A stretch of DNA of 64,000 nt, from positions 164,092 to 228,091 of the forward strand of contig CAWCIS010000006.1 of NCBI GenBank assembly GCA_963795625.1, in the 5' to 3' direction. The translations under genes were made by a program, and so were the position numbers. This DNA comes from an uncultured Solirubrobacterales bacterium. Its GTDB lineage: Bacteria; Actinomycetota; Thermoleophilia; Solirubrobacterales; 70-9. The first letter of the stretch is position 1; every line of letters starts with the position of its first letter. Below the pieces are notes generated by a model that did not search any database, was not told the origin of the DNA, and worked only from the letters and a program-made list of their open reading frames with translations. Of this stretch, positions 1 through 30,261 are shown piece after piece.

Positions 1-112
1 TGCGTCGCGCTGATCGGCGCGTCCGCGAAATCTGCCGATGGTAATTTGCAGCGGAGATGGCGGGGGCCGTCGGATCGCCACTCTTCTGCCACCGGATTCG
101 ACGTGACGCACC

Positions 113-141
113 TTGATCGCTCAGCAAAAGCTGCCTATGAC
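113..141 (+). promoter_or_regulatory. putative sigma70-like promoter of secreted paralog 1 (TTGATC - 17 nt - TATGAC)
   Basis: TTGATC at 113-118 and TATGAC at 136-141. The same hexamers and spacing recur at the same distance upstream of all seven paralogs. The conserved ~55-nt leader ends in AAGGAG. Confidence 0.4.
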
Positions 142-196
142 TCTCAGGACCGCTCGGCCACAGGGGTCGGGCGACTACTACAAGGAGCGAGATCGA

Positions 197-916
197 ATGA
201 TCCGCAATCTCAAAGTCCTGTTGGCGGCCGCGATGGCGCTGGCAGCCTTCGGCGCCGTCAGCGCCGGCGCCGCTCACGCGGCAGAAGAATTCCACTGTCA
301 GGCGGGGGTGACTCCATGCACAATCACAGCGTCCCAGGATGGCGCCGCTGGTTCGGTGACAGGGTCGCAGGTATTCATCCCTAAAAACAAAGCAGGAGAA
401 ACCGCTTCCTTCAAATGTGGGACGGTGTCAGGAGGCGCGACATCGACCACCGTCACGACCCCAGAACTCACAGTCGGCGCAGCCGGCCTATTGGCATACG
501 GCAGCTGCAAAGTCAACGGCAGCTCTGAAGTCAAAGTCCGGATGAACGAATGCCATTACCTGTTTACAGCGCTCAATGGCGAAACGGTCGCAGGCTCGAT
601 AGTTCACGTCCTGTGCAAAACCGCGAAACACATCGAAATCGAAGTCCCCGAAACCGGCTGCGTATTTGAAGTGACACCGCAGACACTGACGGGGGTTCAT
701 TACCACAACATCGGCACCAAAGGAACCTCCTCGACAGAAACGACAGTCGAAGTAAGCACCAGCATCCCCACCGTCGAGGTCGGCAAAGTGGGTACGGGCT
801 GTCTTCCTAAAGCAGTTGTGGGAGAAACCCTCACTGCCGAATACAAAGGCAACGCGCTCGCCACAGCAGAGAAAGACAACGCCAGCAAAGAAATGGTCGA
901 AGGCTGGTGGGCATAG
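197..916 (+). CDS. Cys-rich secreted protein, paralog 1 of 7 (unknown family)
   Basis: ORF 113..916 trimmed to the ATG at 197, preceded by AAGGAG. Signal peptide MIRNLKVLLAAAMALAAFGAVSAGAAHA. Eight conserved Cys. Invariant C-terminus MVEGWWA. Confidence 0.85.
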   Translation: MIRNLKVLLAAAMALAAFGAVSAGAAHAAEEFHCQAGVTPCTITASQDGAAGSVTGSQVFIPKNKAGETASFKCGTVSGGATSTTVTTPELTVGAAGLLAYGSCKVNGSSEVKVRMNECHYLFTALNGETVAGSIVHVLCKTAKHIEIEVPETGCVFEVTPQTLTGVHYHNIGTKGTSSTETTVEVSTSIPTVEVGKVGTGCLPKAVVGETLTAEYKGNALATAEKDNASKEMVEGWWA

Positions 917-965
917 CCATCAGTTGACGGCATCATGACCGCTGAGTTAGCGATCACGATGTGAT

Positions 966-1001
966 GAAGCGAACGGGCCGCATTGGCGGTCCGTTCGCTT
1001 C
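966..1001 (+). terminator. stem-loop terminator after paralog 1
   Basis: GAAGCGAACGGGCCGC / GCGGTCCGTTCGCTTC forms a 16-bp stem (one G-U pair) with a 4-nt loop, followed by TT. Confidence 0.55.
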
Positions 1002-1020
1002 TTAGAAACCCGTGCATTTC

Positions 1021-1050
1021 TTGACAAGCACTATCCCGTGCCGATACAGT
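1021..1050 (+). promoter_or_regulatory. putative promoter of giant-protein operon 1 (TTGACA - 18 nt - TACAGT)
   Basis: Perfect -35 TTGACA at 1021-1026 and a TANNNT-type -10 at 1045-1050. It lies inside the 5' extension of ORF 1012..5256, which argues for the downstream GTG start. Confidence 0.45.
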
Positions 1051-1116
1051 CCAATGGGATGTCGGGATGAGGAGCATGGGAGTGCTCACCAGGGAAGTAG
1101 CGGAGGGGGGAATCCA

Positions 1117-4100
1117 GTGAAGAGCAAAATCAGCTCGGTGGGCTTGGCCTCTGTGTCGATAGCGCTTTTTTCTGTCGCCATAGCGTTTCTACTGGGAGTT
1201 TCTACCTCCGCAGTGGCCGAAATCGCACCCTTCTGTACTCCGGGAATCCAGGGGGGTAAATGCGAAGACCCACATGGGATAGCGGTTGACACCGAAACCG
1301 GCCGCGTTTACGTAGCCGACTCGGGCAACAACCGCGTTGATGTCTTCCGATCGGACGGCATCTTCCTTTTCACCTTCGGCTGGGGGGTAAAAACCGGCGC
1401 CAACGAACTTCAGACCTGCACCACGGGATGTCAAGCTGGGATTGCCGGCGCGGGCCTTGGTCAGTTCTCCTCGCCGAGCTGGATCGCGGTGGACAACGAT
1501 GCCGCCAGCTCATCCCGGCATGACGTCTACGTCGGCACCGATAACTTCCGCGTCCAGAAGTTCGATCCGAACGGCGAACTCGTCAAAGCTTTCGGTACTG
1601 AAGGCCACGTCGGCAAACAGGGAACCGGCGCCTGCGAATTCGCAAGGGAAAAGGATCCCATCGCCGTGGGCTCGGGTGGCAATGTCTACGTTGCCGACAG
1701 CTTCGATAAAGACGGTCCGGGAAGCGGCCACGTCTTCGTCAGTCGGATCATCGTCTTCAGCTCCAGCTCCTCGGGCGCTTGCTCCGAAATTGAATTACCG
1801 AATATTGAAGGGGACTTCAAGACGATCCAAGCCCTCGCCGTTGATTCGACCGGCCATATCTATGTAACGGTCGAAGCGGACGGCAGGGGCATCCGCAAAT
1901 ACAGCCCCTCTGGAGTACTAGAAAAAGAACTCGATGTCGCGACCGAAACGACGGAAGGTCTTTTTACCCCGAGCTTGTCGATCGATACCGCTGACAATCT
2001 ATTTGCCGAGCAGCTGGCAGAAAGACTGCTCGAAGGCGAAACCGTTGACTTCTTCACCGAGTACTCGCCAGCGGGGGTAAGGCTCAAACACTTCGGCTAT
2101 CTGATCCACCCTGGAGGCCTTGTAGTTCCCGCCCTCGCCGCATACCACAGTCCCAGCGGCGATCTCTACGCCAATGAGGGATCACAGGAAATCAAGTATC
2201 TGCAGCTACCCCCCCCGGGCCCGGTCATAGCCTCGGTGGCGTGCAAGGTGAAAGCAGAAACCCTCGGCAGCAGTAAGGCGACCTTGCAGGCCCGGGTCGA
2301 TCCGGAGGGGAAACAGACGACCTTCCGATTCGAATACGTAACGCAGGATCAGTTCGAACTGAACGAATGGGACCAAGCCGAAATCACCGATCCCTCCACG
2401 CTGCCTGCGGAAGTCGAACTGGAGGAAGCGACGATCGAAGTCAAAGGCCTGAAACCGGAAACCAAATACCATTGCCGGGTTGTCGCCGAAAACGTCGACA
2501 GCGCTACCCCGGTACATGGCGAAGAAGGCACCTTCACGACTCTGGAAGGATTTGAATTTGGCCCCGCCTGGAGCGGGAACGTAGGGGAAACCTCGGCGAC
2601 CATCTTTGTCGATGGCAATCCGCTGGAAACCCCGGCGACGGGCCAGATCGAATACGTCGAAGACGCCAAGTACCAGCCGGACCACTCCTTCGCCGAAGCC
2701 CAGAGCGCGCCGGCGCCGGAACTGGATTTCGGAAACGGCAACACGATGAAGTTGGTGCAGGTGACGCTGAGCGGCCTGAAGCCCGGCACCCTCTATCATT
2801 ACCGCTTGCGGGCTCGTAACGGGACGCCGCCGGAGGGGTTGATCTGCCCCGAACGTAAACCGGCCTGCCCCGAGCTCGAGCACACCTTCAGGACCTACTC
2901 AGTTGGTGCTGCCGGAGCCGGCGAAGCGGACCATCGCCGCTATGAGCTCGTCTCGCCGGGGGAAAAGAACAGCGCCGAAGTGGGGGTATTCGGGCCCGCT
3001 GCGGGCTTCTTCGAGGACCGCGCGATGCGGATCGTGGCGTCGGCGGGCTCCGGCGAAGCGGTCACCTACACTTCTTGGACCTCGTTCGGGCAGGCCGAAG
3101 GGTCTTTCGCGGCCAGCCAGTACCTCTCAAAGCGGACCGAAGGCGGCTGGGTGACCGCAAATACTTCACCCTTCGGCTTCGTCGCCAACGTCCTCGACCC
3201 GCCATATCTGGGCTTCACGCCCGACCTGGGCTACGGAGCGTTCAAAACGACCGAACCGCCGCTGACCGGGGACTGCCGCAAAGGCTCCGAAGACATGTAC
3301 CTGCGCGACAACGAGACGGGGGCCCTGCGTTGCCTCTCGCCGGAAATCTCCGGTGGGCCCAATGCAGCCTGCCTGGTTTTCGCCGGCGCGAGGGAAGACG
3401 GCGGCCGCGTATTCGTGGCCGGCAGACCCGAAGGCGGAGAGTCCTACACCTACAGCCTGTACGAATCGACGCCGAGCGGGATCCAGTTGATCAGCGTGCT
3501 GCCCAGCGGAGAACCGGCGCCGGCGACCCCTGGAACCTCCTTTGGTCCGTCGAGGAGTTCTAGCGGCCCCGAAAACTGCCAGGTCTCGCGCACGCGCCTG
3601 AGCTCGGCGATCTCCAGCGACGGCTCGAAGGTATTCTGGACCTATGTGCCGGAAGCTAGCGTGAGGGTCACCCCGACCGCACCGGGCACTCAGAAAGTGA
3701 CCGTCGCCGGGGCGACCGAAGGCGACTTCACCCTCAGCTTCCAGGATAAAACGACGGCACCGATCGCCCTCAAAGCAAGCGCCGGAGTGCTGCAGGCGGC
3801 GCTCGAATCGCTGTCGACGATCGGGGCCGGCAACGTGGAAGTGTCCGGCTCCGGGCCCTATGTCGTCACCTTCAAGGGAGCGCTGAGCGGCACCGAAGTC
3901 CAACTCAGCTCCAACGCCGGCAACCTTCGGGCTGAACTCACGCAGCTGCTGGTACGCGTCGACAACAGCAAAACCAACCAGCTCGATGCGCCACCACCAC
4001 CGCCTGCAGATCAGAAAAATGTAGGAAAAGGTCCGGCTGGCGGCGGCGTCTTCTGGGCCGCTGCCGCCGACGGCTCCGTCGCCTATTTCACGGCCACCGG

Positions 4101-5256
4101 CAGGCTCACCTCCTCCTCCAAAGCTGCTGCGGGAGAACCGGATCTCTACCGTTATGAACTCGGCAACGCCGAAGAACCGCTAACCGACATCACCAAAGGC
4201 TCGGTTCCGGGCAACGTGCAAGGAGTGGTCGGAGCCTCTGAAGACGGCTCTTATGTCTACTTCGTCGCCAAAGCGGCGCTGACGGGCGAAGCAACGAACG
4301 GCGCCGGGCTAAAAGCCGAAAAAGGCGGTGAGAACCTCTACCTCTACCACGAAGGCCAACTGACGTTTATCGCCACCCTTGCCGCCCCTGAAAACGGCTT
4401 AGGCCGAGACGAAAGCAACTGGTCATCGGAACTGCGGCGCCTAAGCGCCCGCGTCTCCGCCGACGGCAGGCACCTGGCCTTCCTCTCGATCGAAGCGCAG
4501 AAACTGGCGGGCTATGAGAACACCCGCGCCTCAGGCAAACCCTGCGAATACTCCCTGAACGAGAACAGCGCAGAATTCATCGGCAGCTCCCTCTGCTCGC
4601 AGGCCTTCCTCTATGACGCCGACAGCGGCAAGCTGACCTGCGCCTCCTGCAACCCCTCGGGAGCGCGGCCGAAGGGCCCGACGATCTTCCCCAACTGGAG
4701 CAACGGCTTCGAAGGCCCGCGCTACCTCTCCAACAACGGCAAGCGCTTGCTCTTCGTCTCCTTCGACTCGCTGCTGCCGACGGATATCAGCGCAAAGGGG
4801 GACGTCTATGAGTTCGAGCTGCCGGGGGAGGGGACCTGCAGCGAGGCCGCCCCGGCCTTCGACCCGGTCTCCGGGGGCTGCCACCTCCTCGTCTCCAGTG
4901 GCAAAAGCAGCGACGAAAGCTTCCTGATCGATGCGTCAAGCGACGGCCACGACATCTTCTTCTCGACCCGCGACAAATTGGTCGGCTGGGACGTGAACGA
5001 AAACTTCGACATCTACGACTACCGCGAAGGAGGCGGGTTCGCGGAACCGGTGGCAGCATCGGTATGCGGCGGGGAAGCGGGCTGCGTGCCGCCGGCGAGC
5101 CCGCCGCCCGCAGCCTCCGCTCCGGCCACTCCCGGTTTCAGCGGGCCGGGCAACGCGAAGCCGAAGAAGCAAAAGCCCAAGAAGAAGAAGCACAAGCAGG
5201 CCAAGCACAAGAAGAAGGCAAAGCACGCCGGCAAGCAGCGGAGGGCGGGTCGATGA
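1117..5256 (+). CDS. giant exported NHL / FN3-like / PD40 (TolB-like) beta-propeller repeat protein with Lys-rich C-terminal tail
   Basis: GTG at 1117 preceded by GGAGGGGGG. Hydrophobic signal/anchor SVGLASVSIALFSVAIAFLLGVSTSAVA. NHL-like motif GRVYVADSGNNRVDVF. FN3-like modules (TFRFEYV..YHCRVVAEN; YHYRLRARN). PD40-like repeats SSDGSKVFWT, AADGSVAYFT, SEDGSYVYFV, SADGRHLAFLS, SNNGKRLLFVS, SSDGHDIFFST. Tail KPKKQKPKKKKHKQAKHKKKAKH. Confidence 0.85.
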   Translation: MKSKISSVGLASVSIALFSVAIAFLLGVSTSAVAEIAPFCTPGIQGGKCEDPHGIAVDTETGRVYVADSGNNRVDVFRSDGIFLFTFGWGVKTGANELQTCTTGCQAGIAGAGLGQFSSPSWIAVDNDAASSSRHDVYVGTDNFRVQKFDPNGELVKAFGTEGHVGKQGTGACEFAREKDPIAVGSGGNVYVADSFDKDGPGSGHVFVSRIIVFSSSSSGACSEIELPNIEGDFKTIQALAVDSTGHIYVTVEADGRGIRKYSPSGVLEKELDVATETTEGLFTPSLSIDTADNLFAEQLAERLLEGETVDFFTEYSPAGVRLKHFGYLIHPGGLVVPALAAYHSPSGDLYANEGSQEIKYLQLPPPGPVIASVACKVKAETLGSSKATLQARVDPEGKQTTFRFEYVTQDQFELNEWDQAEITDPSTLPAEVELEEATIEVKGLKPETKYHCRVVAENVDSATPVHGEEGTFTTLEGFEFGPAWSGNVGETSATIFVDGNPLETPATGQIEYVEDAKYQPDHSFAEAQSAPAPELDFGNGNTMKLVQVTLSGLKPGTLYHYRLRARNGTPPEGLICPERKPACPELEHTFRTYSVGAAGAGEADHRRYELVSPGEKNSAEVGVFGPAAGFFEDRAMRIVASAGSGEAVTYTSWTSFGQAEGSFAASQYLSKRTEGGWVTANTSPFGFVANVLDPPYLGFTPDLGYGAFKTTEPPLTGDCRKGSEDMYLRDNETGALRCLSPEISGGPNAACLVFAGAREDGGRVFVAGRPEGGESYTYSLYESTPSGIQLISVLPSGEPAPATPGTSFGPSRSSSGPENCQVSRTRLSSAISSDGSKVFWTYVPEASVRVTPTAPGTQKVTVAGATEGDFTLSFQDKTTAPIALKASAGVLQAALESLSTIGAGNVEVSGSGPYVVTFKGALSGTEVQLSSNAGNLRAELTQLLVRVDNSKTNQLDAPPPPPADQKNVGKGPAGGGVFWAAAADGSVAYFTATGRLTSSSKAAAGEPDLYRYELGNAEEPLTDITKGSVPGNVQGVVGASEDGSYVYFVAKAALTGEATNGAGLKAEKGGENLYLYHEGQLTFIATLAAPENGLGRDESNWSSELRRLSARVSADGRHLAFLSIEAQKLAGYENTRASGKPCEYSLNENSAEFIGSSLCSQAFLYDADSGKLTCASCNPSGARPKGPTIFPNWSNGFEGPRYLSNNGKRLLFVSFDSLLPTDISAKGDVYEFELPGEGTCSEAAPAFDPVSGGCHLLVSSGKSSDESFLIDASSDGHDIFFSTRDKLVGWDVNENFDIYDYREGGGFAEPVAASVCGGEAGCVPPASPPPAASAPATPGFSGPGNAKPKKQKPKKKKHKQAKHKKKAKHAGKQRRAGR

Positions 5257-8200
5257 GCGCGGTGAGGAGGTCTCTGGCGATCCTGGCGGCCCTAACGGCG
5301 CTGGCTGCCCCCGCGAGCGCTGCTGCGGCAATCGAAAAGCCGGCCTGGAGCGTGCAGCCCCTGGCGACGCCGACCAACTTCCTGGCGGGCGAACAGAGCG
5401 AATTCAACAAGCAGCCCCGCTACCAGGTGTTCATCACCAACAGCGGCGGCGAAAAGACCAATTCGAGCCCGATCAGGATCACCGACACGCTGCCGGCGGG
5501 GGTGGTGGTGAAAAGCGCAGAGTTGGAACCGCCTCGAGGGTTTCTGGGCTCCCTGGGAAAAGTCTGCAAAACCAAAGTCGCGGGCCAAGTCAGCACGGTC
5601 AGCTGCGAAGTCGAAGAAGCGGTGCCGGCGGGACTGGAACCGGCGCGACTCTCACCGGGCAACCAGATGTTCCTGGAAATCAAAGTGGCGGTGCCGGCGA
5701 CGCTCAGCGGCGCGCTGGTCAACCGGGTGGAAGTGGAAGGGGGCGGCGCGGAAGCGGTGGCGGCGGAGGGGGAGAACGAAGTCAACAGCGAAAACCCTGA
5801 AGCCGGGTTCCAGGAATTCAGGGCCGAACTTACCGGGGCCGACGGGAGGCCGGCGAGCGCGGCCGACTCCCACCCCTACCAGTACACGACGAGCTTCGGG
5901 TTGAACGTGATCGCGGCGCCCCCGGGCGTCACGGGCTCGGTGGTGCCAGCGGGGGGCGATACGAAGAAGATCGAAGTGGCGCTGCCGCCGGGGCTGGCGG
6001 GGAACCCGACCGTGGTGCCGCCCTGCCCGGCGCAGCAGTTCACGACCCACCGTAACGTCTACTCCCCGACCCGGGAAAACTTCATCACCTCGAACGAATG
6101 CCCGGACGCCTCGGTGGTGGGGGTGGCCAACCTGGAGCAGCTGGAAGGGGAATCGGCGGTGTTGGCGACGCCGATCTACAGCCTCGTCCCGCCGAAGGGG
6201 ATGCCGGCACAATTCGGCTTCGAAGTCGTAGGCGGCCCGCTCTACATCAATACGAGGCTGCGCAGCGATGGCGACTACGGGATCACGGCCTTCCTGGCCA
6301 ACATCACCGAGGCGAAGCGGCTGACGGCGGGGCGGTTCACCTTCTGGGGGACGCCGTGGGATGAAAGCCACACGCCAATGCGGGGTGAATGCTCGAAATC
6401 GTGGGAAACGAAATGCAAAGTGCCAGGGGCCGACGGCGCGCGGGCGTTCCTGCGGATGCCGAGCTCGTGCGCGGATCCGCTGGTGACGACGATGAGCTTC
6501 ACGACCTGGACGCGGCCGCCGGCGGCCGCGGGCGAGACCTCGGGGGAAGCGGCACCGACGGCGTGCGCCGCACCGCCGTTCGGGCCGACGATCGAATCGC
6601 GACCGAGCACGGACGTGGCGGACTCACCGGCGGGCCTTCACTTCGACCTGCATCTGCCCCAGCGCGAGCACGAAGGCCCGGCGGACACGGGAGAGGCGGA
6701 CCTGCGCGACGTGGCGGTGGCGCTGCCGAAGGGGCTGGTGGTGAACCCGGCCTCGGCGGATGGGCGCGCCGCCTGTTCTCCCGCTCAAGTCGGCCTGGCG
6801 AGCGCGCCGGGAGCGAGCCCGATCCGCTTCAACCTGGCGGCGGCGAGCTGCCCGGACGCGGCGAAGGTGGGGACGGTGGAAGCAGTGGCACCGGCGCTCG
6901 ATCACCCGATCGCGGGGAGCATCTACCTGGCGACCCAGGAAGAGAACCCCTTCAACAACCTCATCGCCCTCTACGTCGTCTTCGAAGACCCCCGCAGCGG
7001 AATCGTGATCAAGCTCGCCGGCAAGGTCACCCTGGACCCGGCGACGGGACAGGTGTCGACGAGCTTCACGGAAAACCCGCAGGTCCCGGTCGAAGACTTC
7101 AAGTTCGACTTCTTCGAGGGTGCCAGAGCACCGCTTCGCACCCCGATGGCGTGCGGGGACTACACGACCACCTCGACGATGACGCCGTGGACCGCTCCCG
7201 CCGGCCTCAGTACGACGCCCTCAGACTCCTTCCACGTCGGCGCCGGCCCGCAGGGCCCCTGTCCGAGCGGCGCCTTGGACCCAAGGCTCGCCGCCGGGAT
7301 GGCGAACCCCAGCGCCGGCACCTACAGCCCCTTCAGCCTGCGCCTGACCCGGGCCGATGGCACCGGCGAATTCGCCCGCCTCACCACCACGCCGCCGCTG
7401 GGCTTCACGGCCCGCCTGGCCGGGGTCCCCTACTGCCCGCAGGCGGGGATCGACCAGGCGATCGCCCGCGAACATCCCGGCCAGGGCGCCCTCGAGCTCG
7501 CGAACCCGTCCTGCCCGGCGGCCTCCCAGGTCGGAACCGTCAGCGCCGGCGCCGGCGCCGGCCCCACCCCGATCTACACCTCTGGCAAGCTCTACCTCGC
7601 CGGCCCCTACAAAGGTGCCCCGCTCTCGCTGGTGGCGATCATCCCCGCGATCGCCGGCCCCTTCGACCTCGGCACCGTCACCAGCCGGGTCGCCGCCCGC
7701 CTGGACCCCGAAACCGCCCAGGTCACCGCGGTGGCCGACCCGCTGCCGCTGATCCGCTCGGGCATCGTGCTCGACCTGCGCGACCTGCGGGTCAACCTCG
7801 ACCGGCCGGACTTCGCCCTCGCCCCGACCAGCTGCGAACCAAAGAGCGTGGGGGCGACTGTGCAGGGCACCTCGGGCAACTCCGCCACCGTCTCCCAGCG
7901 CTTCCAGGTCGGTGGTTGCGGAGCGCTGAAGTTCAAGCCGTCCGTCTCCCTGACGCTGAAGGGCGGTACGAAGCGATCCGATCACCCGGCCCTCAAAGCG
8001 GTGGTCACCTATCCGCAGAAGGGCCGCTACGCCAACACCGCCAAGGCCTCGGTCGCCCTCCCGCACTCCGAGTTCCTCGAGCAGGCCCACATCCGCACGA
8101 TCTGCACCAGGGTCCAGTTCGCCGCGAACGCCTGCCCCAAAGGCGCGATCTACGGTAAGGCCAAGGCCTTCACGCCACTGCTCGACAAGCCCCTTGAAGG

Positions 8201-8525
8201 CCCGGTCTACCTGCGCTCCTCCTCCAACCCCCTGCCCGACATGGTCCTCGACCTCCACGGCCAGATCGACGTCGTCGGCGTGGCCCGGATCGACTCCCAC
8301 AAGGGCGGCATCCGCTCCAGCTTCGAAGCCGTTCCCGACGCGCCGCTCTCCAAGGTGATCGTCGAACTGCCCGCCGGCAAGAAGGGCCTGCTGGTCAACT
8401 CGCGCAACATCTGCAACCACACCAACCGCGCCACCGCCAACTTCACCGCCCACAACGGCAAGACCTCCGAGTCGCGGCCGGTGCTGAAGGACAGCTGCAG
8501 GGGCAAGAAGCGCAAGAAATCGTAG
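5253..8525 (+). CDS. ~1090-aa exported partner protein (DUF11/CARDB-like N-terminal motif, remainder unknown)
   Basis: ATG at 5253 overlaps the upstream stop (ATGA). Signal peptide MSAVRRSLAILAALTALAAPASAAAA. ITDTLPAGVVV motif. Colinear paralog of 18073..21270 (shared blocks GTPWDESH..RGEC, IYLA..NPF..L(I/L)ALY(V/L)V..(I/V)(V/K)(L/V)AGK(V/L)T(L/P)DP). Ends CRGKKRKKS. Confidence 0.85.
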   Translation: MSAVRRSLAILAALTALAAPASAAAAIEKPAWSVQPLATPTNFLAGEQSEFNKQPRYQVFITNSGGEKTNSSPIRITDTLPAGVVVKSAELEPPRGFLGSLGKVCKTKVAGQVSTVSCEVEEAVPAGLEPARLSPGNQMFLEIKVAVPATLSGALVNRVEVEGGGAEAVAAEGENEVNSENPEAGFQEFRAELTGADGRPASAADSHPYQYTTSFGLNVIAAPPGVTGSVVPAGGDTKKIEVALPPGLAGNPTVVPPCPAQQFTTHRNVYSPTRENFITSNECPDASVVGVANLEQLEGESAVLATPIYSLVPPKGMPAQFGFEVVGGPLYINTRLRSDGDYGITAFLANITEAKRLTAGRFTFWGTPWDESHTPMRGECSKSWETKCKVPGADGARAFLRMPSSCADPLVTTMSFTTWTRPPAAAGETSGEAAPTACAAPPFGPTIESRPSTDVADSPAGLHFDLHLPQREHEGPADTGEADLRDVAVALPKGLVVNPASADGRAACSPAQVGLASAPGASPIRFNLAAASCPDAAKVGTVEAVAPALDHPIAGSIYLATQEENPFNNLIALYVVFEDPRSGIVIKLAGKVTLDPATGQVSTSFTENPQVPVEDFKFDFFEGARAPLRTPMACGDYTTTSTMTPWTAPAGLSTTPSDSFHVGAGPQGPCPSGALDPRLAAGMANPSAGTYSPFSLRLTRADGTGEFARLTTTPPLGFTARLAGVPYCPQAGIDQAIAREHPGQGALELANPSCPAASQVGTVSAGAGAGPTPIYTSGKLYLAGPYKGAPLSLVAIIPAIAGPFDLGTVTSRVAARLDPETAQVTAVADPLPLIRSGIVLDLRDLRVNLDRPDFALAPTSCEPKSVGATVQGTSGNSATVSQRFQVGGCGALKFKPSVSLTLKGGTKRSDHPALKAVVTYPQKGRYANTAKASVALPHSEFLEQAHIRTICTRVQFAANACPKGAIYGKAKAFTPLLDKPLEGPVYLRSSSNPLPDMVLDLHGQIDVVGVARIDSHKGGIRSSFEAVPDAPLSKVIVELPAGKKGLLVNSRNICNHTNRATANFTAHNGKTSESRPVLKDSCRGKKRKKS

Positions 8526-8661
8526 CAGCGAGCGATCCGGGGCCAGATCCCTGCGTGGCGCGAACCCGCACACGCGCGAAGTAGCGACACGGCCCTTGCA
8601 GGGGAAACGCAGGATCTGACCGGTGGCATGGACCCATCCGGGCCGACCATCGTGCCCCAAC

Positions 8662-8690
8662 TTGATCGCTCAGCAAAAGCTGCCTATGAC
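8662..8690 (+). promoter_or_regulatory. putative promoter of paralog 2
   Basis: Same TTGATC-17-TATGAC motif and leader as 113..141. Confidence 0.4.
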
Positions 8691-8745
8691 TCTCAGGACC
8701 GCGCGGCCAGAGGGGCCGGGCGACTACTACAAGGAGCCAGATCGA

Positions 8746-9492
8746 ATGATCCGCAATCTCAAGGTCCTGCTGCTCAGCGCAATGGCGCTGGCAGCCTTCG
8801 GCGCCGTCAGCGCCGGCGCCGCTCACGCGGCAGAAGAATTCCACTGTCAGGCGGGGGTGACTCCCTGCACAATCACAGCGTCTCAGGATGGCGCCGCCGG
8901 CTCAGCGACAGGTGGGCAGGTGTTCATTGTCAAAAACAACCAACCTAAACCAGAAACCGGTTCCTTCAAATGTGGGACGGTGTCAGGAGGCGCGACATCG
9001 ACCACCGTCACGACCCCAGAACTCACAGTCGGCGCAGCCGGCCTATTGGCATACGGCAGCTGCAAAGTCAACGGCAGCTCTGAAGTCAAAGTCCGGATGA
9101 ACGAATGCCATTATCTGTTTACAGCCCTCAATGGCGGAACGACCGCAGGCGCGATAGTCCACGTCCTGTGCAAAACCGAAAAACACATCGAAATCGAAAT
9201 CCTCGAAACCGGCTGCATATTCGAAGTGACACCGCAGACACTGACGGGGGTTCATTACCACAACATCGGCACCAAAGGAACCTCTTCGACAGAAACGACA
9301 GTCGAAGTAAAAATCCCCAACTCCCCCCCCACCTCCCCAGGTATCACCGTCGAGGTCAAAGCAGTGGGTACCGGATGCCTTCCCAAAGCAGCCGTGGGAG
9401 AAACCCTCACCGCCGAATACAACGGCAACGCGCTGGCTACAGCAGAGAAAGACAACACCAATAAAGAAATGGTCGAAGGCTGGTGGGCATAG
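8746..9492 (+). CDS. Cys-rich secreted protein, paralog 2
   Basis: ORF 8623..9492 trimmed to MIRNLKVLLLSAMALAAFGAVSAGAAHA. Carries an insertion KIPNSPPTSPGI in the variable patch. Ends MVEGWWA. Confidence 0.85.
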   Translation: MIRNLKVLLLSAMALAAFGAVSAGAAHAAEEFHCQAGVTPCTITASQDGAAGSATGGQVFIVKNNQPKPETGSFKCGTVSGGATSTTVTTPELTVGAAGLLAYGSCKVNGSSEVKVRMNECHYLFTALNGGTTAGAIVHVLCKTEKHIEIEILETGCIFEVTPQTLTGVHYHNIGTKGTSSTETTVEVKIPNSPPTSPGITVEVKAVGTGCLPKAAVGETLTAEYNGNALATAEKDNTNKEMVEGWWA

Positions 9493-9544
9493 TCATCAGT
9501 CGACTACATCCCGATTGCTGCAGCTAGCGATCAGGACGTGACGA

Positions 9545-9652
9545 GCCGGCACGGACCAAGAAGATAGGCGTGGTCCGTGCCGGCTACTCAACGGGGAGCG
9601 CGCTGGACCGATTTCTGCCTGTCTCTATTCGGCGGACGCGCCGAACAGAGAC
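9545..9652 (+). terminator. conserved double-hairpin intergenic module (copy 1)
   Basis: Hairpin 1 at 9545-9584: GCCGGCACGGACCA / TGGTCCGTGCCGGC. Hairpin 2 at 9621-9652: GTCTCTATTCGGCG-GACG-CGCCGAACAGAGAC. Confidence 0.45.
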
Positions 9653-9724
9653 ACGGCCTTTGCAGGGGAGACGCCGGCTTGCCGGGACTGCCTCGTCAGA
9701 CGGCGTCACTCATCGAGTCCCAGC

Positions 9725-9753
9725 TTGATCGCTCAGCAAAAGCTGCCTATGAC
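9725..9753 (+). promoter_or_regulatory. putative promoter of paralog 3
   Basis: Same motif as 113..141. Confidence 0.4.
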
Positions 9754-9809
9754 TCTCAGGACCGCGCGGCCAGAAGGGGCCGGGCGACTACTACAAGGAG
9801 CGAGATCGA

Positions 9810-10529
9810 ATGATCCGCAATCTCAAAGTCCTGTTGGCGGCCGCGATGGCGCTGGCAGCCTTCGGCGCCGTCAGCGCCGGCGCCGCTCACGCGGCAGAAG
9901 AATTCCACTGTCAGGCGGGGGTGACTCCATGCACAATCACAGCGTCCCAGGATGGCGCCGCTGGTTCGGTGACAGGGTCGCAGGTATTCATCCCTAAAAA
10001 CAAAGCAGGAGAAACCGCTTCCTTCAAATGTGGGACGGTGTCAGGAGGCGCGACATCGGCCACCGTCACAACCCCAGAACTCACAGTCGGCGCAGCCGGG
10101 GCGCTGGCTTACGGCAGCTGCAAAATCAACGGCAGCTCTGAAGTCAAAGTCCGGATGAACGAATGCCATTACCTGTTTACAGCCCTCAATGGCGGAACGA
10201 CCGCAGGCGCGATAGTCCACGTCCTGTGCAAAACCGCGAAACACATTGAAATCGAAACCCCCGAAGACGGCTGCATATTCGAAGTGACACCGCAGACACT
10301 GACGGGGGTTCATTACCACAACATCGGCACCAAAGGAACCTCTTCGACAGAAACGACAGTCGAAATAAACGCCACCGGTATCAGCGTGGAGACCTCCCAT
10401 GTGGGTACCGGGTGTATTCCCAGAGCAGCCGTGGGAGAAACCCTCACCGCTACCTACAACGGCAACGCGCTCGCCACAGCAGAGAAAGACAACACCAATA
10501 AAGAAATGGTCGAAGGCTGGTGGGCATAG
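9810..10529 (+). CDS. Cys-rich secreted protein, paralog 3
   Basis: ORF-track ORF. The signal peptide and first ~80 codons are identical to paralog 1. Ends MVEGWWA. Confidence 0.88.
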   Translation: MIRNLKVLLAAAMALAAFGAVSAGAAHAAEEFHCQAGVTPCTITASQDGAAGSVTGSQVFIPKNKAGETASFKCGTVSGGATSATVTTPELTVGAAGALAYGSCKINGSSEVKVRMNECHYLFTALNGGTTAGAIVHVLCKTAKHIEIETPEDGCIFEVTPQTLTGVHYHNIGTKGTSSTETTVEINATGISVETSHVGTGCIPRAAVGETLTATYNGNALATAEKDNTNKEMVEGWWA

Positions 10530-10581
10530 TCATCAGTCGACTACATCCCGATTGCTGCAGCTAGCGATCAGGACGTGACGA

Positions 10582-10689
10582 GCCGGCACGGACCAAGAAG
10601 ATAGGCGTGGTCCGTGCCGGCTACTCAACGGGGAGCGCGCTGGACCGATTTCTGCCTGTCTCTATTCGGCGGACGCGCCGAATAGAGAC
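10582..10689 (+). terminator. double-hairpin intergenic module (copy 2)
   Basis: Same sequence as 9545..9652, shifted by 1037 nt. Hairpin 2 is perfect here (GAATAGAGAC). Confidence 0.45.
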
Positions 10690-10761
10690 ACGGCCTTTGC
10701 AGGGGAGACGCCGGCTTGCCGGGACTGCCTCGTCAGACGGCGTCACTCATCGAGTCCCAGC

Positions 10762-10790
10762 TTGATCGCTCAGCAAAAGCTGCCTATGAC
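10762..10790 (+). promoter_or_regulatory. putative promoter of paralog 4
   Basis: Same motif as 113..141. Confidence 0.4.
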
Positions 10791-10845
10791 TCTCAGGACC
10801 GCTCGGCCACAGGGGTCGGGCGACTACTACAAGGAGCGAGATCGA

Positions 10846-11565
10846 ATGATCCGCAATCTCAAAGTCCTGCTGCTCAGCGCAATGGCGCTGGCTGCCTTCG
10901 GCGCCCTGAGCGCCGGCGCTGCTCACGCAGCAGAGGAATTCCACTGTCAGGCGGGGGTGGCTCCCTGCACATGGACAGCATCTCAGGATGGCGCAGCGGG
11001 TTCAGCAACAGGGGCGCAACTATTCATCCCTAAAAACAAAGCAGGAGAAACCGCTTCCTTCAAATGTGGGACGGTGTCAGGAGGCGCGACATCGGCCACC
11101 GTCACAACCCCAGAACTCACATTCGGCGCAGTCGGGGCACTGGCTTACGGCAGCTGCAAAGTCAACGGCAGCTCTGAAGTCAAAGTCCGGATGAACGGCT
11201 GTCACTATCTGTTTACAGCCCTCAATGGCGGAACGGCCGCGGGCGCAATAGTTCACATCCTGTGCGAAACCACGCAACACATCGAAAGAGAAGTTCCAGA
11301 AACCGGTTGCATACTAGAAACAACACCGCAGACACTTACCGGGGTTCACTACCACAACATCGGCACCAAAGGAACCAACTCGACAGAAATAACAGTTGAA
11401 ATGAAAGTCTCAGGCCTCGTTGTGGAGGTTGCCAAAGCGGGCACCGGGTGCCTTCCCAAAGCAGCCGTGGGAGAAACCCTCACCGCCGAACTCAATGGCA
11501 ACATGATCTTCACAGCAGAGAAGGACAACGCCAACAAAGAAATGGTCGAAGGCTGGTGGGCATAG
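10846..11565 (+). CDS. Cys-rich secreted protein, paralog 4
   Basis: ORF 10762..11565 trimmed to MIRNLKVLLLSAMALAAFGALSAGAAHA. Ends MVEGWWA. Confidence 0.85.
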   Translation: MIRNLKVLLLSAMALAAFGALSAGAAHAAEEFHCQAGVAPCTWTASQDGAAGSATGAQLFIPKNKAGETASFKCGTVSGGATSATVTTPELTFGAVGALAYGSCKVNGSSEVKVRMNGCHYLFTALNGGTAAGAIVHILCETTQHIEREVPETGCILETTPQTLTGVHYHNIGTKGTNSTEITVEMKVSGLVVEVAKAGTGCLPKAAVGETLTAELNGNMIFTAEKDNANKEMVEGWWA

Positions 11566-11617
11566 TCATCAGTCGACTACATCCCGATTTCTGCAGCTAG
11601 CGATCAGGATGTGACGA

Positions 11618-11724
11618 GCCGGCACGGACCAAAAGATAGGCGTGGTCCGTGCCGGCTACTCAACGGGGAGCGCGCTGGACCGATTTCTGCCTGTCTCTAT
11701 TCGGCGGACGCGCCGAACAGAGAC
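11618..11724 (+). terminator. double-hairpin intergenic module (copy 3)
   Basis: Hairpin 1 at 11618-11656 (loop 1 nt shorter). Hairpin 2 at 11693-11724. Confidence 0.45.
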
Positions 11725-11797
11725 ACGGCCTTTGCAGGGGAGACGCCGGCTTGCCGGGAACTGCCTCGTCAGACGGCGTCACTCATCGAGTCCCAGC

Positions 11798-11826
11798 TTG
11801 ATCGCTCAGCAAAAGCTGCCTATGAC
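11798..11826 (+). promoter_or_regulatory. putative promoter of paralog 5
   Basis: Same motif as 113..141. Confidence 0.4.
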
Positions 11827-11881
11827 TCTCAGGACCGCTCGGCCACAGGGGTCGGGCGACTACTACAAGGAGCGAGATCGA

Positions 11882-12601
11882 ATGATCCGCAATCTCAAAG
11901 TCCTGCTGCTCAGCGCGATGGCGCTGGCGGCCTTCGGCGCCGTCAGCGCCGGCACCGCTCACGCGGCAGAAGAATTCCACTGTCAGGCAGGGGTGGCTCC
12001 CTGCACAATCACAGCGTCCCAGGATGGCGCCGCTGGTTCGGTGACAGGTTCGCAGGTATTCGTCCCCAAAAACAAAGCAGGAGAAACCGGCTCCTTCAAA
12101 TGTGGGACGGTGGAAGGAGGCGCGACATCGGCCACCGTCACAACCCCAGAACTCACAGTCGGCGCAGCCGGGGCGCTGGCTTACAGCAGCTGCAAAGTCA
12201 ACGGCAGCTCTGAAGTCAAAGTCCGAATGCACAGCTGTCACTATCTGTTTACAGCCGTAAACGGCGGAACGGCCGCGGGCGCAATAGTTCACATCCTGTG
12301 CGAAACCGAAGAACACATCGAAATCGAAATCCCCGAAACCAAATGCATATTTGAAGTGACACCGCAGACACTGACGGCGGCGCACTACCACAACATCGGC
12401 ACCAAAGGAACCAACTCGACAGAAACGACAGCCGAAATAAAAGCCACGGGTATCACCGTCGAGGTCAAAGCAGTGGGTACCGGGTGTATTCCCAAAGCAG
12501 GCCTGGGGGAAACCCTCACCGCTACCTACAACGGTAACGCGCTGGCCACAGCAGAGAAAGACAACACCGACAAAGAAATGGTCGAAGGCTGGTGGGCATA
12601 G
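11882..12601 (+). CDS. Cys-rich secreted protein, paralog 5
   Basis: ORF 11642..12601 trimmed to MIRNLKVLLLSAMALAAFGAVSAGTAHA. Ends MVEGWWA. Confidence 0.85.
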   Translation: MIRNLKVLLLSAMALAAFGAVSAGTAHAAEEFHCQAGVAPCTITASQDGAAGSVTGSQVFVPKNKAGETGSFKCGTVEGGATSATVTTPELTVGAAGALAYSSCKVNGSSEVKVRMHSCHYLFTAVNGGTAAGAIVHILCETEEHIEIEIPETKCIFEVTPQTLTAAHYHNIGTKGTNSTETTAEIKATGITVEVKAVGTGCIPKAGLGETLTATYNGNALATAEKDNTDKEMVEGWWA

Positions 12602-12653
12602 CCATCAGTCGACTACACCCCGATTGCTGCTGCTAGCGATCAGGACGTGACGA

Positions 12654-12760
12654 GCCGGCACGGACCAAAAGATAGGCGTGGTCCGTGCCGGCCACTCAAC
12701 GGGGAGCGCGCAGGACCGATTTCTGCCTGTCTCTATTCGGCGGACGCGCCGAATAGAGAC
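12654..12760 (+). terminator. double-hairpin intergenic module (copy 4)
   Basis: Hairpin 1 at 12654-12692. Hairpin 2 at 12729-12760. Confidence 0.45.
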
Positions 12761-12823
12761 ACGGTCTTTGCAGGGCAGAAGCCAGCCCCCCCGGAACTGC
12801 CTCGTCACTCGTCGAGTCCTAGC

Positions 12824-12852
12824 TTGATCGCTCAGCAAAAGCTGCCTATGAA
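12824..12852 (+). promoter_or_regulatory. putative promoter of paralog 6 (TTGATC-17-TATGAA)
   Basis: Same position and spacing as the other copies; the -10 differs by one base. Confidence 0.35.
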
Positions 12853-12907
12853 TCGCGGGACCGCTCGGCCAAGGGGGCCGGGCGACTATTACAAGGAGCG
12901 AGATCGA

Positions 12908-13630
12908 ATGATCCGCAATCTCAAAGTCCTGCTTGCCGCCGCGATGGCGCTGGCAGCCTTCGGCGTCGTGAACGCCGGCGCCGCTCACGCGGCAGGGGAG
13001 CTATTCCACTGTCAGGCGGGGGTGGCTCCCTGCACAATTACAGCGTCCCAGGACGGCGCAGCCGGCACGGCGGCAGGGGCGCAGGTGTTCGTCCCCAAAA
13101 ACAAAGCAGGAGAAACCGGCTCCTTCAAATGCGGGACGGTGGAAGGAGGCGCGACATCGACCACCGTCACAACCCCAGAACTCACATTCGGCGCAGCCGG
13201 CCTACTGGCTTACGGCAGCTGCAAAGTCAACGGCAGCTCTGAAGTCAAAGTCCGGATGAACGGCTGTCACTATCTGTTTACAGCCGCGAACGGCGGAACG
13301 GTCGCAGGTGCGATAATACATGTTCTGTGTACGACCGCAAAACATGTCGAAATCGAAATCCCGGAAACCGGTTGCATATTCGAAGTGACACCGCAAACAC
13401 TGACGGGAGCTCACTACCACAACATCGGTACCTCGGGGACCAGCTCGACAGAAGTAACAGTCGAAGTACAAGTTAGCGGTGTCGTCGTCGAGGTCAAGGC
13501 AGTAGGTATTGGATGCATACCCAGAGCAGCTGTGGGAGACACCCTCACCGCCACCTACAACGGCAATCTGCTCTTTACAGCAGAGAAAGACAACACTAAC
13601 AAAGAGATGGTCGAATTCTGGTGGGCATAA
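12908..13630 (+). CDS. Cys-rich secreted protein, paralog 6
   Basis: ORF 12647..13630 trimmed to MIRNLKVLLAAAMALAAFGVVNAGAAHA. Ends MVEFWWA. Confidence 0.85.
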   Translation: MIRNLKVLLAAAMALAAFGVVNAGAAHAAGELFHCQAGVAPCTITASQDGAAGTAAGAQVFVPKNKAGETGSFKCGTVEGGATSTTVTTPELTFGAAGLLAYGSCKVNGSSEVKVRMNGCHYLFTAANGGTVAGAIIHVLCTTAKHVEIEIPETGCIFEVTPQTLTGAHYHNIGTSGTSSTEVTVEVQVSGVVVEVKAVGIGCIPRAAVGDTLTATYNGNLLFTAEKDNTNKEMVEFWWA

Positions 13631-13679
13631 TCCTAAGTTGACAAGAACCCAACGGGAGGGTACGACGACCGTTTTTTGC

Positions 13680-13715
13680 GTATCTCTATTCGGCGCGCGC
13701 GCCGAATAGAGATAC
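13680..13715 (+). terminator. single palindromic hairpin (variant of hairpin 2)
   Basis: GTATCTCTATTCGGCGCG / CGCGCCGAATAGAGATAC is a 36-nt perfect palindrome. Hairpin 1 is absent in this spacer, and a T6 run precedes the palindrome. Confidence 0.4.
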
Positions 13716-13787
13716 GGCCCTTTGCAGGGCCGAAGCCGGTTCGTCTGGAACCGCTCAAGCAGGCGCGAGGACCCAGCGGACCCCGGC

Positions 13788-13816
13788 TTGATCGCTCAGC
13801 GAGAGCTGCCTATGAA
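13788..13816 (+). promoter_or_regulatory. putative promoter of paralog 7 (TTGATC-17-TATGAA)
   Basis: Same architecture as the other copies, with a more diverged leader. Confidence 0.35.
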
Positions 13817-13870
13817 TTGTGGGAATGCTCGACCACAGGGCCGGGCGACTACGACAAGGAGCGAGATCGA

Positions 13871-14584
13871 ATGATCCGCAATCTCAAAGTCCTGCTGCTC
13901 AGCGCGATGGCGCTGGCGGCCTTCGGCGCGCTCAGCGCCGGCGCCGCTCACGCGGCAGAAGAATTCCACTGTCAGGTAGGGGTGGCACCCTGCACATGGA
14001 CAGGTTCCCAGGATGGTGCAGCGGGTTCAGTAACAGGCGGGCAGGTGCTCGTCATCAAAAACGCCGCAGGAGAAATCGCCTCCTTCAAATGCGGCACGGT
14101 GTCCGGAGGCGCGACATCGACCACCGTCACAACCCCGGAACTCACATTCGGCGCAGCTGGGGCGCTGGCTTACGGCAGCTGTAAAGTCAACGGCAGCTCT
14201 CAGGTCACTGTCCGGATGAACGGCTGTCACTACCTGTTTACAGCCGCAAACGGCAAAACGGAAGCAGGCGCGACAGTTCACATCCTGTGTGCAACCGAAA
14301 AACACATCGAAAGAGAAATTCCAGAAACCGGCTGCATACTAGAAACAACACCGCAGACATTGACCGGAGCTCACTACCACAACATCGGCGCCGGAGCTAC
14401 GACAGAAACGACAGTCGAAGTGAAAGTCAGCGGTGTCGTCGTCGAGGTCAAGGCAGTGGGCAGCGGGTGTCTTCTCCCTGTGAAAGTGGGAGAAACTCTC
14501 ACCGCCACGTACAACGGCAACATGATCATCACAGCAGAGAAAGACAACAGCAACAAAGAAATGGTCGAAGCCTGGTGGGCATAG
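13871..14584 (+). CDS. Cys-rich secreted protein, paralog 7 (most divergent)
   Basis: ORF 13676..14584 trimmed to MIRNLKVLLLSAMALAAFGALSAGAAHA. Ends MVEAWWA. Confidence 0.85.
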   Translation: MIRNLKVLLLSAMALAAFGALSAGAAHAAEEFHCQVGVAPCTWTGSQDGAAGSVTGGQVLVIKNAAGEIASFKCGTVSGGATSTTVTTPELTFGAAGALAYGSCKVNGSSQVTVRMNGCHYLFTAANGKTEAGATVHILCATEKHIEREIPETGCILETTPQTLTGAHYHNIGAGATTETTVEVKVSGVVVEVKAVGSGCLLPVKVGETLTATYNGNMIITAEKDNSNKEMVEAWWA

Positions 14585-14589
14585 CCGTC

Positions 14590-14619
14590 GGTGAGGGGTC
14601 GCCAGGGCGACCCCTCACC
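14590..14619 (+). terminator. GC-rich hairpin terminating the array
   Basis: GGTGAGGGGTCGCC-AG-GGCGACCCCTCACC, starting 6 nt after the stop codon. Confidence 0.55.
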
Positions 14620-14658
14620 TCGCTGATGGCGTAGCGTCCAGGGTCCAGGGGAGATTCC

Positions 14659-14686
14659 TTGACAGATATCCCTTGTTTCCTATAGG
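14659..14686 (+). promoter_or_regulatory. putative promoter (TTGACA - 16 nt - TATAGG)
   Basis: Perfect -35 at 14659-14664 and a -10-like TATAGG at 14681-14686. It would give a ~140-nt leader before the ATG at 14832. Confidence 0.45.
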
Positions 14687-14831
14687 GTCTCTGCGCGGTG
14701 CCCGAACGGGTTCGGGTGCCAGGTTTGAGGACGGGCACGCACGGGGGCGAGGGAGAAGTGGAAAGCAAGGCTCTCCGATCCGTATGGCCACGGTCCCTAC
14801 TTAGAAGACCAGTCTCTAAAGGGAGAGTGAA

Positions 14832-15675
14832 ATGAAGTTGAACCGCTATGTCGGCCTTCTCTTGGCGGTCGCCGGTTTGATCACCGCTTTCGCGGCGCTC
14901 AGCCCGGTGGCCCAGGCCGCGAAACCTAATCCCGGCTACACGCAGTTTGCCGGCTGTCCCAATCTGTATACAGAAAATCCGAACAGCCTCACCTGTCTCC
15001 GCTCCGAAATCAAGAGCGGCAAATTCAAGATGGGGAACAAAGAAGTTCCGATCGAACATCCGATCGTCTTGACGGGCGGGGTCCAAAAACTCTTCTCGCC
15101 GACGCCGGTCTACTTCAACTCCGAAGGCGGACTGACGAAAGTCAAACAGAAAGTCCCCGGCGGCATCATCGGCCTCACCGGATTGACCTGGCTGGCTGAA
15201 TTCCTCGGCATCGAAGCGTTGACGCTGTACGCAACGACCGAATTGGCTGGCACTCCGATCGTTGCCGGCACCGCGTTCGCGCAGCTCGCCGATCAAAGTG
15301 CACCTGGAGAACACGACCGGCGTTCTGGGCAAAAGCTGCTACGTCGGGTCGAACTCGGCTCCGATCGTCCTCAACCTGACGACCGGTACGACCAGCCCGC
15401 CGCCGCCCAACAAACCGATTTCAGGGAAAGAACCGTTCCTTGAATTCGAACCGATTCTGGAAATCCAGAAGGCGAAAAACGGCACCTACGTGGACAACTC
15501 GTTCGCGGCTCCCGGTGCCAACGGCTGCGTCCTGACGCTGTTCGGCTTCATCCCGATCAGCATCAACGGCCTGGTCAACACTCAGTCGGGCCTGCCGTCT
15601 CCGGCTGGGACCAACGAAACGGTGCAGAATTTCGACGCAGAACTCGCTGCGGGCGAACTGGTGTACACCGAATAG
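14832..15675 (+). pseudogene. exported protein of a second small family, interrupted by a +1 frame break (or sequencing error)
   Basis: ORF 14832..15443 has signal peptide MKLNRYVGLLLAVAGLITAFAALSPVAQA and looks protein-like until ~15290, then becomes Arg-rich nonsense. ORF 15262..15675 (frame +1) continues protein-like (IKVHLENTTGVLGKSCYVGS..). Frame +1 is closed upstream by a TGA at 15220-15222. Confidence 0.6.
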
Positions 15676-15709
15676 GCAACGTTTAAAGGGCCAATAGGCC
15701 TGAAGTTCT

Positions 15710-15743
15710 GGCGCGTGGCGGGTTTCCCGCCACGCGCCTTTTT
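15710..15743 (+). terminator. canonical intrinsic terminator
   Basis: 13-bp stem GGCGCGTGGCGGG / CCCGCCACGCGCC with loop TTT, followed by TTTTT. Confidence 0.75.
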
Positions 15744-15823
15744 GTTGGCTGCGTCAGGCAGATACTAGAAAATTCCTATATAGTTACTGAGTAGTTACGA
15801 GGGGTCGTCCGGGAGGGGACGCA

Positions 15824-30240: not shown

Positions 30241-30261
30241 GAATCGGCGGATCGCCGTAGC

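Follow-up and report, generated by a model that had tools for sequence, protein, structure and literature searches.

The anchors of the Clostridioides difficile Cwp/CWB2 proteins (among them SlpA, with its high- and low-molecular-weight (HMW-LMW) chains), of SLH proteins and of choline-binding proteins are folded repeat domains with known ligands, and two-subunit surface layers held at the wall by non-covalent forces, such as C. difficile SlpA, are likewise known. At the actinobacterial surface, the mycobacterial proteins HBHA and Hlp/LBP bind polyanions through a Lys-rich, basic, low-complexity C-terminus; HBHA itself is small, has no Sec signal and possesses a coiled-coil body. The closest known kind to the system analysed here is that of the Gram-positive fibrillar adhesins (MSCRAMM, antigen I/II and PrgB-type proteins). 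Such adhesins are recognized by their extracellular location, a tandem-domain stalk, a terminal adhesive region, a known anchor and a whole fibril made of one or a few identical chains (PMC8286594). Here, we describe two pairs of coupled genes, each made of a ‘giant’ and a ‘partner’, in the genome of an uncultured Solirubrobacterales bacterium (GenBank assembly GCA_963795625.1, G+C content 70%). They lie in a stretch of 64,000 nucleotides (nt), hereafter the window, which corresponds to positions 164,092 to 228,091 of the forward strand of contig CAWCIS010000006.1. Solirubrobacterales are among the commonest uncultured soil actinobacteria, in a phylum that is generally single-membraned, and to our knowledge almost nothing is known about their surface. 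The genes concerned are as follows (window coordinates; aa, amino acids):

1117 to 5256, forward strand: giant 1, putative type-1 head protein, 1379 aa, GTG start, signal peptide.
5253 to 8525, forward strand: partner 1, putative type-1 stalk protein, 1090 aa, signal peptide.
15824 to 18076, forward strand: giant 2, putative type-2 head protein, 750 aa, TTG start, signal peptide.
18073 to 21270, forward strand: partner 2, putative type-2 stalk protein, 1065 aa, signal peptide.
21267 to 23451, forward strand: third coupled gene, secreted NHL-like propeller with InlB-B/Flg_new_2-type repeats, with a +1 frame break near 22509-22512.

With moderate confidence, we read the two products of each pair as the chains of a single secreted assembly of head and stalk at the cell surface, which charge would retain without sortase and which would have a binding role. 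What we infer from the observations set out below is the physical complex, its surface location, its anchoring by charge and its binding function.

Coupling, conserved adjacency and natural fusions

The start codon of each partner overlaps the stop codon of its giant by 4 nt, at 5253 for giant 1/partner 1 and at 18073 for giant 2/partner 2, and the third gene overlaps partner 2 in the same way at 21267. All three overlaps read ATGA and fall exactly where the first-pass annotation of the window had placed them. At the first junction, the ATG (5253-5255) lies over the TGA (5254-5256) and is preceded by a GGAGGG Shine-Dalgarno sequence at 5240-5245; a GGAGG-type sequence is found upstream of all three. 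Within the host genome, an NTGA overlap with an upstream GGAGG characterizes 10 of 10 giant-partner pairs, the giants of which are only approximately 30-55% identical. Conserved adjacency in other genomes had been fixed beforehand as the point on which the pairing could fail, and it was found: a recognisable giant lies directly upstream of 66 of 78 partners, with a 4-nt overlap in 64 of these 66 pairs. The coupling of the third gene is equally well conserved, as an NHL gene comes next after 61 of 76 type-2 partners and 59 of these 61 junctions overlap by 4 nt. Because nearly all pairs retain the overlap while their proteins have diverged by about 50%, the giant-partner coupling is under selection.

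The natural fusions point in the same direction. At least 33 clusters of proteins (1,884-2,116 aa), drawn from JGI, ENA, NCBI and Logan assemblies, consist of a giant followed by a partner in a single chain, as in the gene order, and are 51-75% identical across the junction. Both profile hidden Markov models match along their length, the partner signal peptide is gone and the polybasic stretch is retained between the propeller and the FN3 domains. Two of these proteins occupy a syntenic site in different genomes with an unbroken translation, and the clade of approximately 2,000 aa was accepted after checks of synteny, unbroken translation and signal-peptide loss. An apparent fusion at locus L077 was rejected, its frame shifting before the tail and its partner signal peptide being intact. 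Two fusions (P0413 and P0428) bear the source labels of metagenome-assembled genomes of Methanosarcina sp. and of a Nitrososphaerota archaeon; judging from their sequences, these contigs are probably mis-binned, since the proteins are 52-54% identical to Solirubrobacterales fusion proteins. As fusions join the two proteins in the same order as the genes, giant and partner very probably act as one unit, in equal amounts, and the fusion clade is the strongest available evidence for this. The two-component unit that had been proposed from the coupling alone has thereby gained conserved adjacency, conserved overlap and natural fusions; that the two chains physically interact is the part we infer.

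The two pairs had initially been described as duplicated, which suggests a local event. Indeed, pairwise alignment confirms what was said of their likeness: the giants are 37% identical over 414 C-terminal residues (E 6e-51), including the common YD.REGGGFAEP / C....C block and the basic tails, and 29% identical over the middle, and the partners are colinear yet diverged, with 41% identity over 934 residues. However, a local duplication has to be abandoned, as each window gene is closer to its orthologue in another genome (51-79% identity to the contig L002) than the window copies are to each other (37-41%). L001 and L002, two long contigs of related genomes, carry giant 1, partner 1, small Cys-rich gene(s), giant 2, partner 2 and the NHL/Flg_new_2 protein in this order, L002 additionally holding a 282-aa gene. 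The usual unit G1-P1-G2-P2-NHL was detected at 79 loci in dozens of Solirubrobacterales assemblies, mostly with no small genes between P1 and G2, and the database records of the relatives all name uncultured Solirubrobacterales. Some genomes of Conexibacteraceae carry the cassette too. Given that this order recurs in 79 loci and that the orthologues are closer, the sequences identify the two window pairs not as local duplicates but as type-1 and type-2 halves, diverged long ago, of a single five-gene cassette.

Nor is the number of copies two. In the host genome (2.54 Mb, 79% complete), we counted at least 10 intact giant-partner pairs; together with the degraded ones, they occupy approximately 86 kb, or 3.4% of the assembly. 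All 19 genomes of the genus that were searched (18 congeners and the host) carry the family, with 2-21 strong matches each, and in public data a partner profile retrieves 4,201 clusters at 50% identity (E <= 1e-30). The family also decays: at C3:299809-308367 and C4:133167-138057 of the host genome lie partner and giant copies that numerous stop codons and frame changes have heavily eroded. A search of the literature returned no paper on the giant/partner family.

Architecture and variation of the two chains

Giant 1 comprises, in order, a signal peptide, an NHL propeller, two FN3-like domains, a PD40-type propeller with an insert, a Pro-rich linker and a polybasic tail. Giant 2 comprises a signal peptide, an FN3 domain (residues 28-135), a TolB/tricorn-type propeller (approx. 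145-675), a Pro-rich linker and a polybasic tail. In a structure model of giant 2 (predicted local distance difference test (pLDDT) 82, predicted template-modelling score (pTM) 0.80), a large propeller follows the FN3 domain and the C-terminus is left disordered, and Foldseek matches it with probability 1.0 to tricorn, TolB and the propellers of S9/DPP-IV peptidases. PD40 matches, all weak (E <= 1), were obtained for 31 of 41 homologues (best 1.2e-05), and none at this threshold for the window's own giant 2. The earlier assignment to PD40 is thus borne out by the structure model and by the weak Pfam matches of homologues, and not by any significant match in the window's own proteins; according to the model, the giant core is a PD40/TolB-type beta-propeller fold. 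The giant matches no peptidase family, and its disordered tail directly follows the propeller, where no catalytic domain of the S9/tricorn kind is found; more generally, neither protein contains a catalytic domain detectable by Pfam, NCBIfam, PDB sequence search or fold search.

The NHL repeats noted in giant 1 at first pass are genuine, scoring 50 bits in Pfam against a cut-off of 20. It had further been suggested that NHL domains were shuffled between the two versions of the operon. Domain fusion and fission are common in the wider family; direct transfer is not shown here, because the NHL region of giant 1 has no significant similarity to the downstream NHL gene (best E 0.02) and each arrangement is conserved at its own cassette position. 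Two further segments of giant 1 deserve mention:

3617 to 3909, forward strand: insert in the propeller of giant 1 (residues 834-931, approx. 95 aa), a gap in the giant alignment.
5075 to 5253, forward strand: Pro-rich linker and Lys/Arg/His-rich (K/R/H) tail of giant 1, the last codons of which carry the partner's GGAGGG (5240-5245).

Neither giant 2 nor any of the other type-1 paralogues has the insert, paralogue identity falling to zero at 901-950. In PHROG, it matches phrog_10909 ‘major tail protein’ (E 2.4e-08) and phrog_2839 ‘tail sheath’ (E 3e-04). A similar module also occurs in the relative P0317.

In partner 1, a signal peptide and a DUF11-like N-domain precede four homologous beta modules, and the chain ends with the short basic tail CRGKKRKKS. 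In partner 2, the segments are:

18154 to 18477, forward strand: FN3 domain, after the signal peptide.
18478 to 19287, forward strand: module A.
19288 to 20007, forward strand: module B.
20008 to 20682, forward strand: module C.
20683 to 21267, forward strand: module D.

Modules A to D are mutually homologous in profile-profile comparison (hhalign probability 84-99%), and the structure model of partner 2 (pLDDT 84, pTM 0.71) is all-beta. The partner core has no Pfam, NCBIfam or PDB sequence match; for the two families together, searches against PDB chains gave nothing useful and NCBIfam gave only weak ScyF/NHL matches. Fold searches with the partner retrieved only strings of immunoglobulin (Ig)/MG/FN3/DUF11-type sandwiches (PrgB, MG domains of alpha-2-macroglobulin, integrin legs), the best PDB match being the Ig-like domains of PrgB. 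As these whole-chain matches are generic, with TM-scores of approximately 0.1, the whole-chain fold search was rejected as a means of identifying the partner. Relationship to alpha-2-macroglobulin/TEP proteins was examined separately: the partner has no CGEQ motif, and its all-beta model no helical domain. More informative is a secreted relative of 7,221 aa from another family of the order (contig C7 of genome G309; L004/L005), arranged as A-(B-C)x~15-D and with no giant gene upstream. The approximately 15-fold expansion of its (B-C) unit indicates that the partner is rod- or stalk-like. In other relatives, different N-terminal heads (NHL+FN3 or other repeats) are placed on the same partner core.

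Variation among paralogues is distributed unevenly along the two chains. Between the type-1 paralogues of the host genome, the giants and the first approximately 400 residues of the partner differ by approximately 45-58%, whereas the divergence drops to 9-20% over the rest of the partner, two-thirds of its length. The variable portions are thus the head and the distal stalk third; the proximal remainder of the stalk stays constant, and gene conversion could contribute to this constancy. A mirror-tree (Mantel) test of giants against partner halves in six paralogous pairs gave r 0.93-0.97; it is discounted as evidence of co-evolution, because one outlier pair (the window's own) and shared duplication history drive the correlation.

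In the mechanism that we propose, the first gene would supply a variable head made of FN3 and/or NHL domains, a TolB-type propeller, a flexible Pro-rich linker and a K/R/H tail of 25-45 residues. The ribosome that ends the head would re-initiate at the overlapping NTGA start, and this coupling would yield roughly equal amounts of head and stalk. The stalk would begin with a variable domain, continue with four homologous beta-sandwich modules that contain disulfide bonds, and end in a short basic tail. Both chains would be exported through their Sec signal peptides and associate 1:1, and the polybasic tails, not sortase, would keep the assembly at the envelope through their charge. The product may then be an adhesin- or receptor-like binding structure, with the head and the N-terminal third of the stalk as its variable parts. 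Both pairs and the NHL protein together form one conserved cassette, present in 2-21 copies per genome.

Proposed attachment to the envelope and competing explanations

A K/R/H-rich C-terminal stretch, with no hydrophobic segment, ends every giant and most partners. In the giants, it follows the Pro-rich linker, is disordered in the model and is basic (+18 in giant 1, +14 in giant 2), in contrast to the acidic bodies with their net charges of -69 and -37. A crude proteome-wide screen detected a basic tail on 22 of approximately 2,087 coding-like open reading frames (ORFs), and 14 of these 22 are giants or partners. Among the remaining eight, one is ribosomal-protein-like (a false positive) and five have a Cys-containing variant of the tail, CxxGFxKKxxxGKxxCxK. 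These five ORFs lie at 29587-30261 (reverse strand) in the window and at C1:36028-37098, C1:419452-421017, C6:298455-302306 and C6:491115-492968 in the genome; one of them has a signal-peptide-like N-terminus in the crude screen, and the same motif ends many giants in other genomes.

No conventional anchor was found in the proteins, which contain no LPXTG/LPXTA motif, anchor Pfam domain or C-terminal helix. Sortase (PF04203) is absent from the host genome (79% complete) and from 16 of 18 congeners (G440-G457), closed genomes included, with positive controls, and is present in other families of the order. Nevertheless, all 19 genomes of the genus carry the giant/partner family although 16 of the 18 congeners are without sortase. 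A tentative extension of the head-and-stalk proposal, which we judge rather unlikely, is that the K/R/H tails, of which that of the giant persists as an internal linker in the fusion clade, provide a lineage-specific, sortase-independent docking of a fast-evolving propeller head to its cognate stalk or to an anionic envelope layer, each cassette being one member of a diversifying repertoire of modular surface receptors whose copy number (2-21) is tuned by duplication, gene conversion and decay.

Several observations weigh against a charge-anchored head-and-stalk assembly. The tail of partner 2 is nearly neutral, and families of the order that do possess sortase carry giant-partner pairs as well. 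None of the 31 genomes searched has TagF-type teichoic acid genes (Glyphos_transf); the obvious anionic ligand in the wall is consequently missing, and teichoic acid as the ligand of the tails finds no support in this search. The polybasic stretch is internal in the fusions, so that a free C-terminus is not required, and it could be a processing site or a contact within the complex instead of a wall anchor. Neither giant nor partner has a known adhesive or anchor domain. Finally, the fusions speak for functional linkage and not for contact in the split form, and partner-like proteins with no upstream giant do exist (12 of 78 by the thresholds used, plus the 7,221-aa protein).

This last point would fit two secreted proteins that are co-expressed and act independently on the same target without forming a complex, as would the separate signal peptide and basic tail of each protein. 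We nonetheless hold independent action to be unlikely: a single-chain fusion conserved over 51-75% identity is hard to reconcile with it, and so is the 4-nt overlap retained in nearly all pairs while the proteins diverged by about half.

Subunits of an S-layer or envelope lattice, with the paralogues as alternative lattice variants, would also account for the large genome share (3.4%), the missing covalent anchor and the occurrence of the family in all 19 genomes of the genus that were searched, and two-subunit, non-covalent layers have a precedent in C. difficile SlpA. However, S-layer genes are usually one or few and highly expressed, whereas 2-21 diverged cassettes are found per genome here. 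The G+C content at third codon positions (GC3) is below that of the neighbouring housekeeping genes of the window, and the expansion of (B-C)n to 7,221 aa suggests a fibre and not a lattice, which leaves this explanation distinctly unlikely.

Many paralogous pairs with variable binding-type domains could alternatively belong to an extracellular capture or enzyme system for soil polymers, comparable to the multi-copy Sus-like pairs, and propellers of this type do precede catalytic domains in tricorn and S9 peptidases. Yet none of the sequence and fold searches described above returned a catalytic domain, and no transporter or hydrolase genes are conserved beside the cassette, so that we consider a capture system very unlikely. 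As for a phage or mobile-element remnant encoding tail-fibre or receptor-binding proteins, the G+C content lower than that of the flanks and the phage tail PHROGs matched by the giant 1 insert are outweighed by Sec signal peptides on all proteins, no other phage genes, an old chromosomal synteny and viral fold matches that are generic sandwiches, and this origin is practically excluded.

Surroundings of the operons and comparison with known systems

The other features of the region are listed below.

197 to 916, forward strand: gene for a small Cys-rich secreted protein, an extra copy upstream of giant 1 (context).
1021 to 1050, forward strand: promoter-like site TTGACA-18-TACAGT, approximately 67 nt upstream of the giant 1 start, a consensus match only (10 of 12 positions).
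8746 to 14584, forward strand: six tandem copies of the gene for the small Cys-rich secreted protein, between partner 1 and giant 2 (context).
14832 to 15675, forward strand: gene from a second family of small secreted proteins, whose L002 member has 282 aa; here the frame breaks near 15289 (context).
15710 to 15738, forward strand: strong intrinsic-terminator-like hairpin (13-bp stem and T run), between the upstream small genes and the giant 2 operon.

Signal peptides are visible at the N-terminus of all five proteins of the cassette, and none of the five has a membrane helix elsewhere. For the third gene, the ScyF-type match is weak (NCBIfam) and the NHL matches of its orthologues are faint. 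Its frame break probably reflects a strain-specific lesion or a mistake of the assembly, since an independent soil metagenome from 2018 contains a 157-nt contig that has two mismatches and lacks one base at 22509. The gene at 14832-15675 is similarly split: in tblastn, the L002 orthologue matches one segment at 66% identity and another, in a different frame, at 80%. Parts of the locus were retrieved from only three soil DNA runs, and no RNA run holding it was found.

Between P1 and G2, L002 has one copy of the Cys-rich gene and most related genomes have none. In the window, 300-nt stretches of these copies (162-461 and 9775-10074) are 99% identical and bracket the giant 1 operon, which therefore sits within a seven-copy tandem array undergoing conversion or duplication. 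The G+C content of the first operon and of the Cys-rich array is 58-65% (GC3 0.64-0.84), against a GC3 of 0.90-0.97 for the housekeeping genes further on; this lower-G+C region (window 1-16000) is nevertheless syntenic in related genomes.

The family is very large, with its 4,201 clusters and 3.4% of the host genome, and yet its stalk has no Pfam family, solved relative or annotation. Were the head-and-stalk proposal with its charge anchor to hold, it would provide a new stalk domain, a new, sortase-free mode of surface attachment and a split version of the fibrillar-adhesin design; were the docking by tails to hold as well, it would represent a new route by which single-membrane bacteria build and vary their surface. 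For structural studies, the natural fusions are single-chain constructs ready to use.

Compared with the Gram-positive fibrillar adhesins, the giant-partner pairs share a predicted export, an N-terminal binding-type head, a tandem beta-sandwich rod, a C-terminal candidate anchoring element, a repeat number that expands in relatives and, as their best fold match, the Ig-like domains of PrgB. Among the five features by which such adhesins are recognized (PMC8286594), two can be read from the sequences (a predicted extracellular location and a stalk) and two are lacking (known anchor and single chain); as to the fifth, the N-terminal FN3, DUF11-like and NHL domains and the propellers are binding-type folds, and no known adhesive family matches them. 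The pairs further differ from fibrillar adhesins in that head and stalk are separate coupled polypeptides, a single chain only in the fusion clade, with no LPXTG, no sortase, no Pfam family for the stalk module and no recognized adhesive domain.

Other systems resemble one part of the assembly each. The giant core is like the TolB/PD40, tricorn and DPP-IV propellers in fold, but has no TolB N-domain, Pal context or peptidase domain after the propeller, and adds N-terminal FN3 or NHL domains and a C-terminal polybasic tail. A propeller head on Ig-like legs is also the design of integrin alpha, the legs of which are among the partner fold matches; integrin alpha is, however, a single eukaryotic chain with a membrane anchor, and at a TM-score of approximately 0.1 this is an analogy only. 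With the Cwp/CWB2, SLH and choline-binding families, the giant-partner family has in common a large number of paralogues, a common attachment element and a variable exposed part. SlpA is moreover a 1:1 complex of two chains, and the fusion and split forms found here suggest the same. The difference lies in the candidate anchor, which is an unstructured K/R/H tail, and there is no sequence similarity. In HBHA and Hlp/LBP, the basic C-terminus is alike without homology. Taken against all these systems, the candidates for novelty are a stalk module not described before, an architecture that is both split and coupled, and a putative attachment by charge.

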